NCBI GenBank assembly: GCA_051531975.1
Contig: JAOPTT010000010.1
Location: 32,001 to 96,000, forward strand
DNA length: 64,000 bases
Reading direction: 5' to 3'
DNA from: Spirochaetaceae bacterium
Lineage (GTDB): Bacteria > Spirochaetota > Spirochaetia > DSM-2461
Shown here: positions 42,335-46,206 of the stretch, piece after piece
Position numbering within the stretch: position 1 is the stretch's first letter
Layout: every line of letters starts with the position of its first letter
Translations under genes and position numbers: made by a program
The notes under the pieces: generated by a model
What the model was told of the DNA's origin: nothing
What the model saw: the letters and a program-made list of their open reading frames with translations, nothing else
Databases searched by the model: none

Positions 42335-43186
42335 TTATTGATTTAAATATTGATTAAATCCCTCACCTAAAACTTCATGTGTAAAACTTACAGAAATAAA
42401 TGCGTTTGGATCTAAGTTTCTTATAAATAGTTTTAATTTTATGTACTCTTTTTTATTTAAAATAGCCTGAATAACCTGTTTTGTTTCCCCAGTATATCCA
42501 CCAACAGCTTCGTAGATTGTAGTAGTTCTATCTATAGATTTTACAACAAAATCATTAATCTGTTTTGACTGCTTACTAATAACTACAACATGGAGTTTTT
42601 GTTCAAACCCGGCTATAACTCTGTCTATAACAAGTCCATTTAGTACAATTCCGACAAATGCCCATAACCCTAGAGTAAAACCAAAGGCAAACCCGGCAGA
42701 AATTACGACAACAAAATCTGTAATTAATAACGCACGTCCTATTTCGGTATGAAAGTATTTATTAATAACTTTTGCAACAATATCAGTACCACCAGTGGAT
42801 GCATCCTGATAAAAAATAAGCCCCATTCCTAAGCCCTGGATAACTATCCCAAAAATTAGATTTAAAAGAGTATCATCAACAATCGGTCCACTTAGAGGAA
42901 AAAACATCTCAAATAAAAATATAATACCTGATAGAGCTAAACTTGAATAAATAGTATTTGCTGTAAATTTTTTGCCAAAGAGAATTAAGGCCACTAAAAT
43001 TAAAACAACATTCATAACTGTCATAACTATTCCAATAGGAATTATAGGTACAAAATGGTTTATAACCATAGCTAGACCAATAATTCCACCTGCTGCTAAA
43101 TCCGATGCAATTAAAAAGAAGTGCAGTCCTATAGCCATAACTATTAGACCGACATTTATAAGTAAAAATTTCTTAAGTTTTTTCAT
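42335..43186 (-). CDS. YitT family membrane protein
   Basis: LAAGG..GLA, STGGTD, GGYTG, DPNAF, EVLGEGF. Confidence 0.9.
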   Translation of the reverse strand: MKKLKKFLLINVGLIVMAIGLHFFLIASDLAAGGIIGLAMVINHFVPIIPIGIVMTVMNVVLILVALILFGKKFTANTIYSSLALSGIIFLFEMFFPLSGPIVDDTLLNLIFGIVIQGLGMGLIFYQDASTGGTDIVAKVINKYFHTEIGRALLITDFVVVISAGFAFGFTLGLWAFVGIVLNGLVIDRVIAGFEQKLHVVVISKQSKQINDFVVKSIDRTTTIYEAVGGYTGETKQVIQAILNKKEYIKLKLFIRNLDPNAFISVSFTHEVLGEGFNQYLNQ

Positions 43187-43341: not shown

Positions 43342-44553
43342 TTAACCTAGAAATTTTACAAACCGTCTTTTTCCAACTTTAATAGTTAAAGATTCACCTT
43401 GTTTCAGATTAATAAAAAGATCACTGTTATCTATTTTTTCTCCATCAATTTTAATAGCCCCCTGGGATATTAATCTCTTAGCCTCTGTTACAGAGGGTAC
43501 TAATTCATAAGTTTTTAATAAATTGATAAGTTTACTCTCTTTAGTACCAATAGTAACTTCTGGGATATCTGTTGGGGCTTCTTTATTACTAAATACTTTA
43601 AGAAACTCATCTTTACAAAAGTCAGCCTCTTTCTTGGAATGATATATAGAGACAATTTCACTGGCTAATTCCAACTTTAAATCCCTAGGATTCTCAAGTT
43701 TCAGTCTCTCTTCAATTATTAAAACTTGATCCTGGTTAAAATTTGTACAGTAGCTAAAAAAAGTAGTTATTATATCGTCTCTAATAGCCATAACCCTACC
43801 AAACTTATCTGATGCTTTTGACAACACAGGTATATGATTATTAAAAGATTTACTCATTTTTCTACCATCGGAACCTAAAAGAAGTGGCATAAAAAGTGCA
43901 ACCTGTGGTTCTAATCCTGAATCCTTTAACATATCCCTTCCACATAAGATATTAAACTTCTGATCCATACCTCCAAGTTCTACATCGCACTCTATTTGTA
44001 CAGAGTCCCAGGCTTGTAATACAGGGTAAAATAGTTCATGCAGAGAGAGTCTAGCACCTGTTTCAAGTCGTTTCTTAAAAGTTTCGTGACTTAACATATG
44101 GGCTACAGAGAATTTAGAACTAGCAGTTAGAAGATCCTGCAGATCAACTTTGTTAAACCAATCACTCTGTTTATGAATTGTAGTTTTATCCCTATCTACA
44201 ATTTTGAATATCTGCTGGCTATAGGTTTCTGCATTGTTTTCTACATCATTAGCTGTAAGTGGAGGTCTCTCTGAATTCCTTCCTGTAGGGTCACCTATTC
44301 TAGCAGTGTAATCTCCAATAATAAGATGGGCATGGTGTCCTAAATCCTGAAACTGTCTAATCTTCTTATAAACAGTCATATGGCCTAAATGCACATCCGG
44401 GGATGTAGGATCAATTCCCATTTTAATTTTTAATGCAATTCCAGTCTCTAAACTTTTTTTAATTTTAGCTTCTAACTCTTTAACTGGCATAATTTCAGCT
44501 ACACCCTCTGTAATAATTCCCATCTGTCTTTGAACTTCTAGCTCTATATTCAT
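43342..44553 (-). CDS. tyrS: Tyrosyl-tRNA synthetase
   Basis: GIDPTSPDVHLGH, LGGMDQKFN, KMSKS, C-terminal S4 domain; ATG 44553 after AAGGGGG. Confidence 0.96.
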   Translation of the reverse strand: MNIELEVQRQMGIITEGVAEIMPVKELEAKIKKSLETGIALKIKMGIDPTSPDVHLGHMTVYKKIRQFQDLGHHAHLIIGDYTARIGDPTGRNSERPPLTANDVENNAETYSQQIFKIVDRDKTTIHKQSDWFNKVDLQDLLTASSKFSVAHMLSHETFKKRLETGARLSLHELFYPVLQAWDSVQIECDVELGGMDQKFNILCGRDMLKDSGLEPQVALFMPLLLGSDGRKMSKSFNNHIPVLSKASDKFGRVMAIRDDIITTFFSYCTNFNQDQVLIIEERLKLENPRDLKLELASEIVSIYHSKKEADFCKDEFLKVFSNKEAPTDIPEVTIGTKESKLINLLKTYELVPSVTEAKRLISQGAIKIDGEKIDNSDLFINLKQGESLTIKVGKRRFVKFLG

Positions 44554-44572
44554 ATTTTTCCCCCTTATAAAC

Positions 44573-44606
44573 AAAAAAAAGACCCGTAGGATATACCTAC
44601 GGGTCT
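44573..44606 (-). terminator. Attenuator terminator directly upstream of tyrS
   Basis: AGACCCGTAGG-tatat-CCTACGGGTCT running into a T8 tract. Confidence 0.9.
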
Positions 44607-44627
44607 GAAATTGTTCATAATTTAATA

Positions 44628-44711
44628 TTACAACTTCTGTAGCTTATACCTTACAAAAAAGAGTGAGTTGTAATAATAATAATAGTTTGTATTTGCTACA
44701 GAAATATTCAT
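44628..44711 (-). CDS. Tyr-rich leader peptide MNISVANTNYYYYYNSLFFVRYKLQKL
   Basis: ATG 44711 after AGGT, TAA 44630-44628; TAT TAT TAT TAT TAC at 44684-44670; upstream of terminator and tyrS. Confidence 0.85.
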   Translation of the reverse strand: MNISVANTNYYYYYNSLFFVRYKLQKL

Positions 44712-44874
44712 ACCTAATTATTAGCATAGATATTAAGGTTTGTACAGAAGAGAACATTAAGGTTCTGTTTTAACTGATACAGAAGTTATGAATAGGAGTA
44801 TTTGATAATTCTATAAATAATATATGTACATAGTTTAAACTAAATAATATTTATACTTGTTAAATGAAATAGTA

Positions 44875-45408
44875 TTAACACAAAATAGCTTCAGGTATTT
44901 CCCGAAATATCTCTTTTACTAAAACATCATGTTTATCTGTAAATAGTGAAATTCTTCTTCCATTACTTGAACCTGTATCTTCTGTTATTATAGAAATATT
45001 ATTGTTTATTAAGAAATTTTCAGCACAAAAAATATTTCTTTGTCCTATTGATTGGTCATTTTTTGTGCTTGGTATTATACTTCCACCACCAAAGATTTTT
45101 GCTTCAATAGATGTAACTTCAGCACCAAATTCAACCATTTTATTTATCAACTCTTTATTAGCATTATCACCAAATCTTAGGGCAGATAGATTTGATTCAT
45201 TATTAAGATATTCTATATTTGAATTACTATTTTGGGGAAGCATATAGTGATTCATACCTGAAACCCCATTTTTTTTGTCAAACAGGCATATAGAGATGCA
45301 TGAACCTAGTATCGTAGTAATAATTTCATCTTTTCTACTAACGTATACTTCACCGGGAAATATAGTTACCTGATCAATTTTATATTGTTGGTTAAAAACT
45401 CTTGTCAT
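44875..45408 (-). CDS. cheD: Chemoreceptor glutamine deamidase CheD
   Basis: TILGSCISICLFD, GMNHYMLP, AKIFGG, IGQRN. Confidence 0.9.
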   Translation of the reverse strand: MTRVFNQQYKIDQVTIFPGEVYVSRKDEIITTILGSCISICLFDKKNGVSGMNHYMLPQNSNSNIEYLNNESNLSALRFGDNANKELINKMVEFGAEVTSIEAKIFGGGSIIPSTKNDQSIGQRNIFCAENFLINNNISIITEDTGSSNGRRISLFTDKHDVLVKEIFREIPEAILC

Positions 45409-45627: not shown

Positions 45628-46206
45628 CTAATATGCACGAATAGCACGTACTGAATAAGTATCCCATTCTGCGCCATCACTACTAAAACTTCCATCACTA
45701 AAATTCATATAACCAGCATATCCATCAGTTTCTAAAGATGATGACCAATAATTTTCTGAATCAAAATTACCAATCAAATCCTTTTTAGAATATAAACTTT
45801 CTAATTCAGATTTTGAAGGTAAAAACCAATCGCTATAACCATTTCGATCAGAAGAGTCACATGCATTTGCAGCATATGTTCCAGAACCTAAAGTATCAAC
45901 AAGAAGCTGCGTATTACTACTTCCTAGCCCTACTGATGAAAATAAATCATTTATATCTACGTAGTTTCCATAACCATTATACCAATACATTTCTGAATTT
46001 TCATCAGTCATTGCAACTTCTAAAAATCTCCAACCATCAGAATAACTACCTTTATCATAGAAAATGTAACCTCCAGATGGGCCAATTTCTAATTCATTAG
46101 CGTCTTCTAATTCATTAGCTTCTGGAGCATATTTAAAAAATGGATTTATAGAGAGCTGATCACAACTAAAAAGTAGTATTAATATAGCAAGTTTAATTAT
46201 TTTCAG
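45628..46206 (-). CDS. Lipoprotein with CLec-fold (DUF1566/Lcl-like) C-terminal domain; CTG start
   Basis: Frame stays open 65 codons upstream of the track ATG (46011) to a CTG after AGGAG; LLFSC lipobox; GPSGGYIFYDKG..DGWRFLE; DWFLPSKSEL, YWSSS, VRAIRAY. Confidence 0.75.
   Translation of the reverse strand: MKIIKLAILILLFSCDQLSINPFFKYAPEANELEDANELEIGPSGGYIFYDKGSYSDGWRFLEVAMTDENSEMYWYNGYGNYVDINDLFSSVGLGSSNTQLLVDTLGSGTYAANACDSSDRNGYSDWFLPSKSELESLYSKKDLIGNFDSENYWSSSLETDGYAGYMNFSDGSFSSDGAEWDTYSVRAIRAY

Follow-up and report, generated by a model that had tools for sequence, protein, structure and literature searches.

How a bacterium adjusts its tyrosyl-tRNA synthetase (TyrRS) to the charging of tRNA-Tyr has a textbook answer, as it was with tyrS that the T-box mechanism was first established; leader-peptide attenuation is the textbook device of the trp, his, phe, thr, leu and ilv operons and of pheST. 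The 64,000-nucleotide stretch of Spirochaetaceae DNA analyzed here (the window) raises the question of whether a tyrS gene can also be controlled by the latter device. On its minus strand lies a tyrS gene, referred to below as tyrS2, which is preceded by a short open reading frame (ORF) containing a run of Tyr codons and by an intrinsic terminator. We consider it likely, with a probability of about 80%, that this leader is a ribosome-mediated transcription attenuator that senses charged tRNA-Tyr through translation of the leader peptide, and that it controls tyrS2 as an accessory synthetase gene.

The minus-strand reading agreed in all coordinates and sequences with the leader ORF that a preliminary description of this DNA had proposed, namely 27 amino acids (44711-44628) with five consecutive tyrosines and a sixth, which is encoded by codon 22. 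The 11-bp terminator with its T8 tract, followed by the ribosome-binding site of tyrS, is likewise present where it had been placed. The terminator sits between the leader ORF and tyrS2, and the end of its T8 tract is separated by 7 nt from the tyrS Shine-Dalgarno (SD) sequence and by 18 nt from the tyrS ATG. This gap between the T tract and the SD sequence is short, and tyrS transcripts must therefore cross the terminator. Two terminator-like sites were found in the region, where 0.3 would be expected. Furthermore, the 208-nt leader folds with an energy of -52.4 kcal/mol, versus -32.9 +/- 4.1 kcal/mol for dinucleotide shuffles (z = -4.8), and none of 200 shuffles was as low.

The Tyr-run leader before tyrS2 is not a chance feature. 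Runs of at least five TAY codons occur 19 times on both strands of the genome from which the window comes (G000; 5.46 Mb, 29 contigs, 31.5% GC), and from this count such a run is expected about 3.5e-4 times in a given 200-nt stretch. The genome contains 39 small ORFs (no longer than 60 amino acids) with at least four consecutive Tyr codons, and only one of them, the tyrS2 leader, has a terminator-like hairpin within 150 nt. We found no other poly-Tyr attenuator in this genome: none of the 38 remaining small poly-Tyr ORFs is followed by a terminator, and a covariance model built from six related leaders (R1) gave a single match, without further leader copies. The same genome also carries a long TAT/TAC microsatellite (contig C8:136973-137098, plus strand), in which an ORF has more than 20 consecutive Tyr codons and no terminator follows.

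The leader ORF, its Tyr run, the position of its stop codon, the alternative helices and the terminator recur before all close orthologues of tyrS2 that we found (54-62% protein identity; 8 distinct loci). A search for conserved poly-Tyr ORFs upstream of related tyrS genes, proposed in the preliminary description as a check, thus came out positive for ORF, frame, stop position and terminator. Among 41 genomes searched (G000 and 40 relatives), close orthologues besides the one in G000 are present in G005 and G010 only (57-58% identity), which also retain a housekeeping tyrS. Their leader peptides, MRISAFSVLSYYYLAKVPDRPPLQKL and MKISVIFANSYYYLYQDLYWPILQKL, are followed by the terminator AGACCCGCAGG..CCTGCGGGTCT with a T9 tract, and the leader is kept regardless of the upstream gene, which is a divergent GGDEF gene in these two genomes and not cheD. 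A metagenome scan with a three-protein alignment returned 10 further loci. The Tyr-run leader and the terminator are present in all five loci that are at least 54% identical over the matched length, which represent four distinct sequences (MKRTAANINYYYYNSFKAEKQMLQKL in L154, MNISAAAVKNYYYNSQCNERLKLQRL in L155, MIISAVTVNNYYYYDSHTPQRPVLQKL in L156, and ...STTYYYYSLLFSKGRYLMMR in both L157 and L162). The leader is absent from the other five of the ten, four of which are 43-47% identical; the fifth, L163, is a short N-terminal fragment whose upstream region is the same as that of this leader-less group. L158 and L160 (46-47% identical) and L163 share a conserved upstream block, ..AAGTTCAAAATATTATACCATATTTTAGAGGGG..TTGCGCTAA..TATAATAT...

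Six of the related loci (that of the window, L002, L003, L154, L155 and L156) were used for alignments and pair counts, from which L157 was left out as it aligned poorly. The leader is more conserved than its surroundings, with a mean pairwise DNA identity in the six aligned loci of 73%, versus 66% for the tyrS2 coding sequence (CDS) and 55% for the 140 nt upstream of the promoter. The ORF has 26-27 codons in the seven closest leaders, and its length, frame and ends are kept in seven loci besides that of the window, with one 3-nt in-frame indel in the alignment. The M-x-I-S start and the LQ(K/R)L-stop end of the peptide are kept in G005, G010, G014 and L154-L156, the ORF ends in TTG-TAA in all six aligned sequences, and three to five consecutive Tyr codons are found in 8/8 related leaders.

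At E <=0.001 the R1 model matched 6 of 38 genomes of the family, namely the three already known, G014 (78 bits) and two others with weak matches, and in 151 genomes of the class it matched G000 and G475 (53 bits). The weak matches in G018 (L168) and G012 (L169) scored about 42 bits each owing to the terminator; we rejected them, neither being a Tyr leader. G014 (L167 1240-1700, minus strand) contains a decayed version of the arrangement. Its leader ORF is intact (MNISAVLLNSYYYNSPYSDRFKLQKL), its terminator has been replaced by an insertion of about 120 nt with CCCCTAAAGGGG-type palindromes, and its tyrS2 is reduced to a 29-residue N-terminal piece and a 70-residue C-terminal, S4-like piece.

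The RNA pairings of the leader are listed in Table 1. All the helices that had been paired by hand in the preliminary description, TATTACAACT/AGTTGTAATA, TTCTGTAGC/GCTACAGAA, GAAGTTGT/ACAATTTC and CTAC/GTAG, are present. The end of the leader ORF (region 2) can be held by either of two protectors, namely by the start of the ORF (helix P1) or by a segment over the last Tyr codons (helix B:B'). P1 is paired in 84.7% of the cells of the six-sequence alignment, with two pairs changed on both sides, and B:B' is complete in the window (10 of 10 pairs), lacks one of its 10 pairs in L155, L154 and L156, and has 5-6 of 10 in L002 and L003. P1 is strong in L002 and L003, and L156 has a weak P1 together with the strongest B:B'; judging by these pair counts, the protector role seems to be shared between the two partners of region 2. 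Both protectors of the preliminary description thus exist, although the helix over the Tyr codons is strong in only four of the six sequences and P1 is the better conserved. Freed region 2 can pair instead with the antiterminator arms AT1 and AT2, the third part of the antiterminator is AT3 (AGGC:GCCT), and the pairing of the distal strand has an (A)GGC(C):GCC(T) equivalent in the other sequences, with 87.5% of the cells paired. The terminator is paired in 100% of the cells.

These values depend on the register of the partners. P1 and the terminator together are paired in 92% of the cells, versus 33-49% when the partners are slid by 1-3 columns, and AT1, AT2 and AT3 together in 95.8%, versus 28-46%. 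In addition, four segments change in concert, reading CTGTAG/CTACAG/CCGTAGG/CCTACGG in the window versus CTGCAG/CTGCAG/CCGCAGG/CCTGCGG in the others; the A:T pair of AT2 in the window is G:C in the five others, with matching changes in P1 and in the terminator. That protector and antiterminator are mutually exclusive is clear from both pair counts and folds. The proposal that the antiterminator invades the terminator stem applies to CTAC:GTAG and to the distal pairing, which could compete with the terminator, but not to GAAGTTGT:ACAATTTC, which only abuts it.

Table 1. Elements of the tyrS2 leader and energies of its two alternative forms (positions refer to the window)
Feature	Position	Strand	Sequence or value	Basis
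-35-like hexamer	44741-44746	minus	TGTACA	promoter scan and conserved position; putative function
-10-like hexamer	44718-44723	minus	TAATAA; ends 6 nt before the leader ATG	conserved position; putative leaderless start
Leader ORF	44628-44711	minus	27 codons + TAA; MNISVANTNYYYYYNSLFFVRYKLQKL, stop	strand reading and ORF listing
P1 5' arm (protector, region 1a)	44695-44706	minus	ORF nt 6-17	minimum-energy structure; pair counts
Five-Tyr-codon run, proposed stalling site	44670-44684	minus	TAT x4, TAC; codons 10-14	sequence
Alternative protector arm B, over the last Tyr codons	44666-44675	minus	TATTACAACT; pairs with AGTTGTAATA at 44626-44635	pair counts
Distal antiterminator strand	44645-44654	minus	GTAAGGTATA; pairs with terminator loop and 3' arm at 44586-44595	hand pairing; forced antiterminator fold
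P1 3' arm, also antiterminator 5' strand (region 2)	44632-44643	minus	ORF nt 69-80; ends at the stop codon	pair counts, folds
Antiterminator AT2 5' arm	44639-44642	minus	CTAC; partner GTAG (44597-44600) within the 5' arm of the terminator	100% of cells paired
Antiterminator AT1 3' arm	44607-44614	minus	ACAATTTC; pairs with GAAGTTGT at 44630-44637	97.9% of cells paired, 6 sequences
Intrinsic terminator hairpin	44580-44606	minus	AGACCCGTAGG-TATAT-CCTACGGGTCT; 11 bp (7 G-C), loop of 5	terminator scan
Terminator T tract	44572-44579	minus	T8	sequence and terminator scan
tyrS Shine-Dalgarno	44560-44566	minus	AAGGGGG	sequence; GGAGG or GGGGG kept in all aligned loci
tyrS2, accessory tyrosine--tRNA ligase	43342-44553	minus	403 aa, HLGH and KMSKS	profile, domain and structure matches
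AT2-forced antiterminator vs terminator form, window			-16.1 vs -28.8 kcal/mol	
AT2-forced antiterminator vs terminator form, L155			-20.1 vs -34.4 kcal/mol	
AT2-forced antiterminator vs terminator form, L154			-14.8 vs -29.9 kcal/mol	
AT2-forced antiterminator vs terminator form, L156			-22.7 vs -29.3 kcal/mol	
AT2-forced antiterminator vs terminator form, L002			-29.5 vs -33.0 kcal/mol	
AT2-forced antiterminator vs terminator form, L003			-33.6 vs -32.9 kcal/mol	

Constrained folding with the ribosome at the Tyr run or at the stop codon, also suggested beforehand, gave the expected antiterminator and terminator states. Without a ribosome, protector and terminator both form. With the ribosomal A-site at the stop codon, only the terminator is left; the TAA is placed within region 2 and immediately behind it. 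If the A-site is put on the Tyr run before region 4 has been transcribed, the downstream RNA forms the antiterminator at -8.5 to -15.3 kcal/mol. When the antiterminator is forced through AT2, L002 and L003 have nearly the same energy in this form as in the terminator form.

How would the leader ORF be expressed? Because the region has no excess of promoter-like sites (4, against an expected 5.0), the promoter was assigned from conserved position only. The place of the -35-like box relative to the leader ATG is kept in 7/7 related leaders, which read TTGAyw where the window has TGTACA; the spacer to the -10-like box is 17-18 nt in these leaders, and the -10-like hexamer lies 6-7 nt before the ATG in all seven. 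The site in the window has 9 of 12 consensus matches. No SD sequence was found before the leader ORF in any of the seven leaders, and tyrS is always preceded by GGAGG or GGGGG. From this spacing, transcription probably starts at or beside the A of the leader ATG, so that the leader peptide would be made from a leaderless mRNA. A precedent for such a leaderless leader is provided by the polycysteine short ORFs of mycobacteria, which are described as Cys-responsive attenuators in an excerpt of 10.1101/834739. No RNA sequencing runs containing the locus were found. The stretch does occur in a DNA run of a marine metagenome, from which it may originate, and a small metatranscriptome made from that sample contained almost none of its sequence words.

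From the elements themselves, their conservation and pairing potential, the lack of a T-box and the recurrence before tyrS, all of which are observed, we infer stalling, a kinetic competition and a regulatory outcome along the following lines. Transcription would begin on the A of the leader ATG or beside it, and a ribosome would translate the 27-codon ORF without the aid of an SD sequence. When Tyr-tRNA is plentiful, the ribosome would reach the TAA and cover region 2 (44643-44626), the terminator would form, and transcription would stop before the tyrS ribosome-binding site. If the ORF is not translated, region 2 would be paired with the ORF start (P1) or with the segment over the Tyr codons (B), and the terminator would form as well. 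When Tyr-tRNA is scarce, the ribosome would stall on the Tyr run and break both protector pairings; freed region 2 would then pair with ACAATTTC and GTAG, and the distal part of the ORF with the loop and 3' arm of the terminator. Nucleation of the terminator would thereby be blocked, and RNA polymerase would read into tyrS. This is the logic of trpL, hisL and pheM-pheST, and not that of a T-box, as the preliminary description had argued; comparative evidence, pairings and independent leaders all support it for the regulation that we infer.

Tyr-run leaders are not confined to the relatives of tyrS2. In another genus of the same family (g5), all four genomes (G007, G012, G016 and G020) have a different Tyr leader before their only tyrS (L013, L022, L026 and L063; 70-300 nt upstream of tyrS), with an ORF of the type M..SYYYYY.., for example MKIINVNSYYYYYSSTNQGLSAR. 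Its promoter reads TTGACA-17-TAGATT, the ORF starts 9-11 nt later, and the ORF is followed by a small covarying hairpin and then by the terminator GCCCCG..CGGGGC with a T8 tract. RNAalifold pairs region 1 (ACAGCU), directly before the Tyr run, with region 2 (GGGCUGU), which is in turn a perfect complement of ACAGCCCC in the 5' arm of the terminator. On these predicted pairings the g5 leader is a textbook attenuator with the 1:2, 2:3 and 3:4 arrangement, in which mutual exclusion is clean. The match in G475, from a further family (L170 1501-1635, minus strand), is another Tyr-run leader, MNRTYYYSYYSSRNGRQPGI (MNRTYYYSYY..), whose terminator is AACCCGCAGG..CCTGCGGGTT; the gene behind it is a second, divergent tyrS with 35% identity to tyrS2; the housekeeping tyrS of G475 lies on another contig, and G035, its congener, has the housekeeping tyrS only.

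A background set of 79 distant tyrS loci from other phyla (<=49% identity, from a single-protein contig scan) contained two more Tyr-run leaders, both in groundwater Chloroflexi assemblies (L089 1216-1355 and L108 1291-1424). These have ORFs ending in ...YGNYYYAAD or ...YDYYGYYYAAD, TTGACA promoters and the terminator AGCGTGGG..CCCACGCT with a T run. Altogether, 15 distinct tyrS loci have a Tyr-run leader, and these leaders belong to at least three sequence-unrelated families. The nucleotides of the Tyr codons differ between the families, and the codons are always in frame in an ATG-started ORF that ends at region 2; therefore codons are favoured over a sequence motif.

An Ile/Leu-rich leader ORF, MNNKSVLSIIIISLIILLGIEVDGERSL, was seen in G012 (L169 1501-1642, minus strand), with the terminator CAGACCCGTTCTCCC-AGAGGACGGGTCT and a T8 tract; it is this sequence that scored 42 bits with the Tyr-leader model. 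The gene that follows, starting MDKVLIFDTTLRDGEQAL, we take to be an isopropylmalate or citramalate synthase gene (leuA/cimA-like), and the arrangement has the look of an attenuator for branched-chain amino acids within the same family.

The T-box scan that had been proposed as a check on the attenuator reading was negative at the locus: the T-box model (RF00230) was not listed at E <=10 in 44400-45000, and no Rfam family reached its gathering score in the whole window. The same scan detected the T-box in five of five Bacillota tyrS leaders and in none of 14 Tyr-leader loci. These Bacillota homologues of this TyrRS type (L102, L105, L115, L122 and L130; 41-43% identity) have canonical T-boxes of 108-136 bits, in the position where the spirochaete-type loci have the Tyr leader. 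The sub-threshold matches at the locus, which include the trpB motif (35.7 bits vs 59), RsaH (32.6 bits vs 50) manA-II and Thr_leader (17.1 bits vs a gathering score of 55), were rejected as family assignments, being driven by the terminator and one hairpin; the His, Leu and Trp leaders were not listed at E <=10.

Several points weigh against the attenuator reading. The covariation is thin, with six related sequences and essentially one compensatory event, and 89 of 500 shuffles reach the observed antiterminator pairing values. AT1 abuts the terminator without overlapping it, so that both coexist in minimum-energy folds; competition with the terminator rests on AT2, which has 4 bp at the top of the stem, and on the variable pairing of the distal ORF. 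In the window the terminator form is favoured by 12.7 kcal/mol over the antiterminator form, and the decision between the two would have to be kinetic, as in trpL. The 5' arm of P1 lies upstream of the Tyr codons, unlike in trpL, and the reading assumes that the trailing half of the ribosome masks it. Within the close family the DNA of the Tyr run, CTATTATTAC, is invariant in the six aligned sequences, by which a motif and codons are indistinguishable within that family alone. The leader ORF has no SD sequence, its translation depending on the presumed leaderless start, and the -35 box of the window is weak (4/6). Transcription start, leader-ORF translation and termination are all predicted from sequence. 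Finally, the sole tyrS of G049, which is 55% identical to tyrS2, has no leader.

Some of these points would also be explained if the leader RNA sensed the TyrRS protein, a tRNA or a small molecule, with the ORF being incidental. The Tyr-run DNA and both ends of the ORF lie in conserved helices, so that constraint on the RNA could account for some of the conservation, there is no SD sequence before the ORF, and AT1 by itself does not compete with the terminator. Such a sensor would nevertheless have to be reconciled with three to four sequence-unrelated tyrS leaders that share in-frame Tyr runs in ATG-started ORFs stopping at region 2 and use different nucleotides for them (TAC TAC TAC in Chloroflexi), with the in-frame indel in the leader ORF, and with the finding of neither a T-box nor another Rfam family; we regard it as unlikely. 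A general sensor of translation stress, in which any slowing of ribosomes (antibiotics, low energy) relieves termination and the Tyr codons have no specific meaning, is very unlikely. The constrained folds suggest that the architecture would indeed respond to any stall from codon 6 to about codon 20, yet three to five cognate codons are kept before the gene of a Tyr-specific enzyme in 15 distinct loci with at least three unrelated leader families, and the Ile-rich leader before the leuA/cimA-like gene in the same family points to matching between codons and gene.

It is also highly improbable that the 140-nt transcript is an independent small RNA (sRNA) or small-protein gene with its own terminator, from which read-through into tyrS is incidental. 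A promoter-like site, an ORF and a strong terminator do make a complete unit, sRNAs are among the best sub-threshold Rfam matches, and attenuator-derived sRNAs are known, as stated in part of PMC6614838. Against this, the interval from the terminator to the SD sequence is too short for a tyrS promoter, the unit always lies directly upstream of tyrS in differing genomic neighbourhoods, and apart from the Tyr run and the ends that form helices the peptide shows little conservation. As for a chance TAT microsatellite beside the terminator of the upstream cheD, a genome of 31.5% GC with TAT repeats, such as the C8 microsatellite with its more than 20 Tyr codons, would make it conceivable. The expectation of about 3.5e-4 speaks against it, and the leader, which is better conserved than the CDS, is kept in GC-richer relatives with a different, divergent upstream gene; conservation refutes this explanation to the extent that sequence data can, and we assign it next to no probability.

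The gene behind the leader is an accessory copy, a second and divergent TyrRS gene, a point absent from the preliminary description. The tyrS2 protein scores 325.3 bits with TIGR00234 (cut-off 113.8), has the class I motifs HLGH (residues 55-58) and KMSKS (residues 232-236), and contains the Pfam domains tRNA-synt_1b, SYY C-terminal and S4. The nearest solved chains are 6bqy (284 bits) and 1h3e (261 bits), those of the S. aureus/B. stearothermophilus type being further away (116-124 bits). Across 401 sampled genomes of the phylum, the tyrS usually found in other classes is of this TyrRS type (40-45% identity). Besides tyrS2, G000 carries one other tyrS gene, a 31%-identical housekeeping copy of 410 residues on contig C8 (C8:84115-85266; locus L060 201-1433, minus strand). 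This copy begins within the stop codon (overlap ATAATG) of a glycyl-tRNA-synthetase-like gene, and no leader precedes it; this glyS-tyrS arrangement is the usual one, being found in most of the related genomes examined, and the three other genomes of the same genus have the glyS-linked tyrS only. Upstream of the leader and tyrS2 lies a gene for a CheD-like deamidase (44875-45408, minus strand; 145 bits, below the equivalog cut-off), downstream one for a YitT/DUF2179 membrane protein (42335-43186, minus strand), and nearby one for a small Lcl_C-domain protein (45628-46011, minus strand). These neighbours are shared with none of the orthologous loci, and leader and tyrS2 therefore move as a unit.

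We tentatively propose, as one joint and rather speculative reading, that a compact, transferable cassette of about 1.6 kb, made up of promoter, leaderless Tyr leader, terminator and tyrS2, encodes an inducible back-up TyrRS of the Thermus/TyrZ-like type; that it is induced by uncharged tRNA-Tyr when the glyS-linked TyrRS fails, for example through a natural inhibitor, D-tyrosine or Tyr scarcity; and that Tyr-run leaders may be a recurrent, uncatalogued class of attenuator with several origins before tyrS (at least two spirochaete-type lineages and Chloroflexi), the ribosome-based counterpart of the T-box. The physiological role given here to the second TyrRS is putative. If the attenuator reading is correct, tyrosine would be added to the amino acids sensed through ribosome stalling, classical attenuators with leaderless leader ORFs would be documented in a phylum where they have barely been described, and the link to an accessory copy would point to conditional use of the second TyrRS. 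The conserved leader family, in the form of the R1 model, is a ready seed for an RNA family model.

The tyrS2 leader is a well-supported candidate for a new instance of a known attenuation mechanism, and not a new mechanism. What is notable beyond this are its link to an accessory TyrRS, its probably leaderless ORF, its recurrence in several lineages and its putative standing as a ribosome-based counterpart of the tyrS T-box. The preliminary description had known of no characterized Tyr leader peptide for tyrS in spirochetes, and none for tyrS was found in the literature searched; the synthetase-attenuator survey of Lopatovskaya et al. 2010 or Vecchione and Sello 2010 might list similar cases. 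In parts of PMC1262725, classical attenuators are placed before trpS and leuS in Streptomyces and before pheST in gamma-proteobacteria, and tyrosine regulation is ascribed to T-boxes. Sections of PMC3847290 describe Leu, Trp and Met leaders in Campylobacter, the mention of tyrS there being unrelated. The aroR leader of Corynebacterium glutamicum, with Phe-Tyr-Phe before aroF, resembles the tyrS2 leader in having a Tyr codon and a link to aromatic amino acids; according to an extract of PMC11802643 the operon is unaffected by Tyr availability, and, unlike the tyrS2 leader, it has one Tyr codon and no run and controls a biosynthetic gene.

The polycysteine ORFs of mycobacteria, as portrayed in the excerpt of 10.1101/834739, share with the tyrS2 leader a leaderless short ORF with a codon run for one amino acid that controls downstream genes; here, amino acid, phylum and target are different and an intrinsic terminator is evident. 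With E. coli pheM-pheST and Streptomyces trpS and leuS (PMC1262725, in part) the tyrS2 leader has in common a leader peptide with many residues of the cognate amino acid, potential alternative hairpins and a terminator before a synthetase gene, according to the trpL/hisL logic. It differs from them in amino acid (Tyr), gene (tyrS) and phylum, in a leader ORF that has no SD sequence and is probably leaderless, in a region 1 that lies partly upstream of the regulatory codons, and in an antiterminator that overlaps only the top of the terminator. No sequence similarity to these leaders was seen, nor a match to an Rfam leader family at the locus. A similar setting is that of the auxiliary TrpRS gene under ribosome-mediated attenuation, cited as Vecchione and Sello 2010 in a passage of PMC4787780, where, as proposed here, the second, divergent synthetase copy is under a cognate-codon leader attenuator and the housekeeping copy is not. 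The present system differs from it in concerning Tyr, not Trp, in belonging to another phylum, and in that inhibitor resistance is not indicated for TyrRS2.

On the T-box side, we take the Bacillus subtilis tyrS leader (RF00230) and tyrZ to be the appropriate comparison systems. The B. subtilis tyrS T-box and the tyrS2 leader have the same gene and, on the attenuator reading, the same signal (tRNA-Tyr charging) and the same output (read-through of a terminator). Unlike the T-box, the tyrS2 leader has no specifier loop or T-box sequence, and sensing would be carried out by the translating ribosome; if so, the adjustment of TyrRS level to tRNA-Tyr charging has been solved by two different RNA devices on homologous genes.

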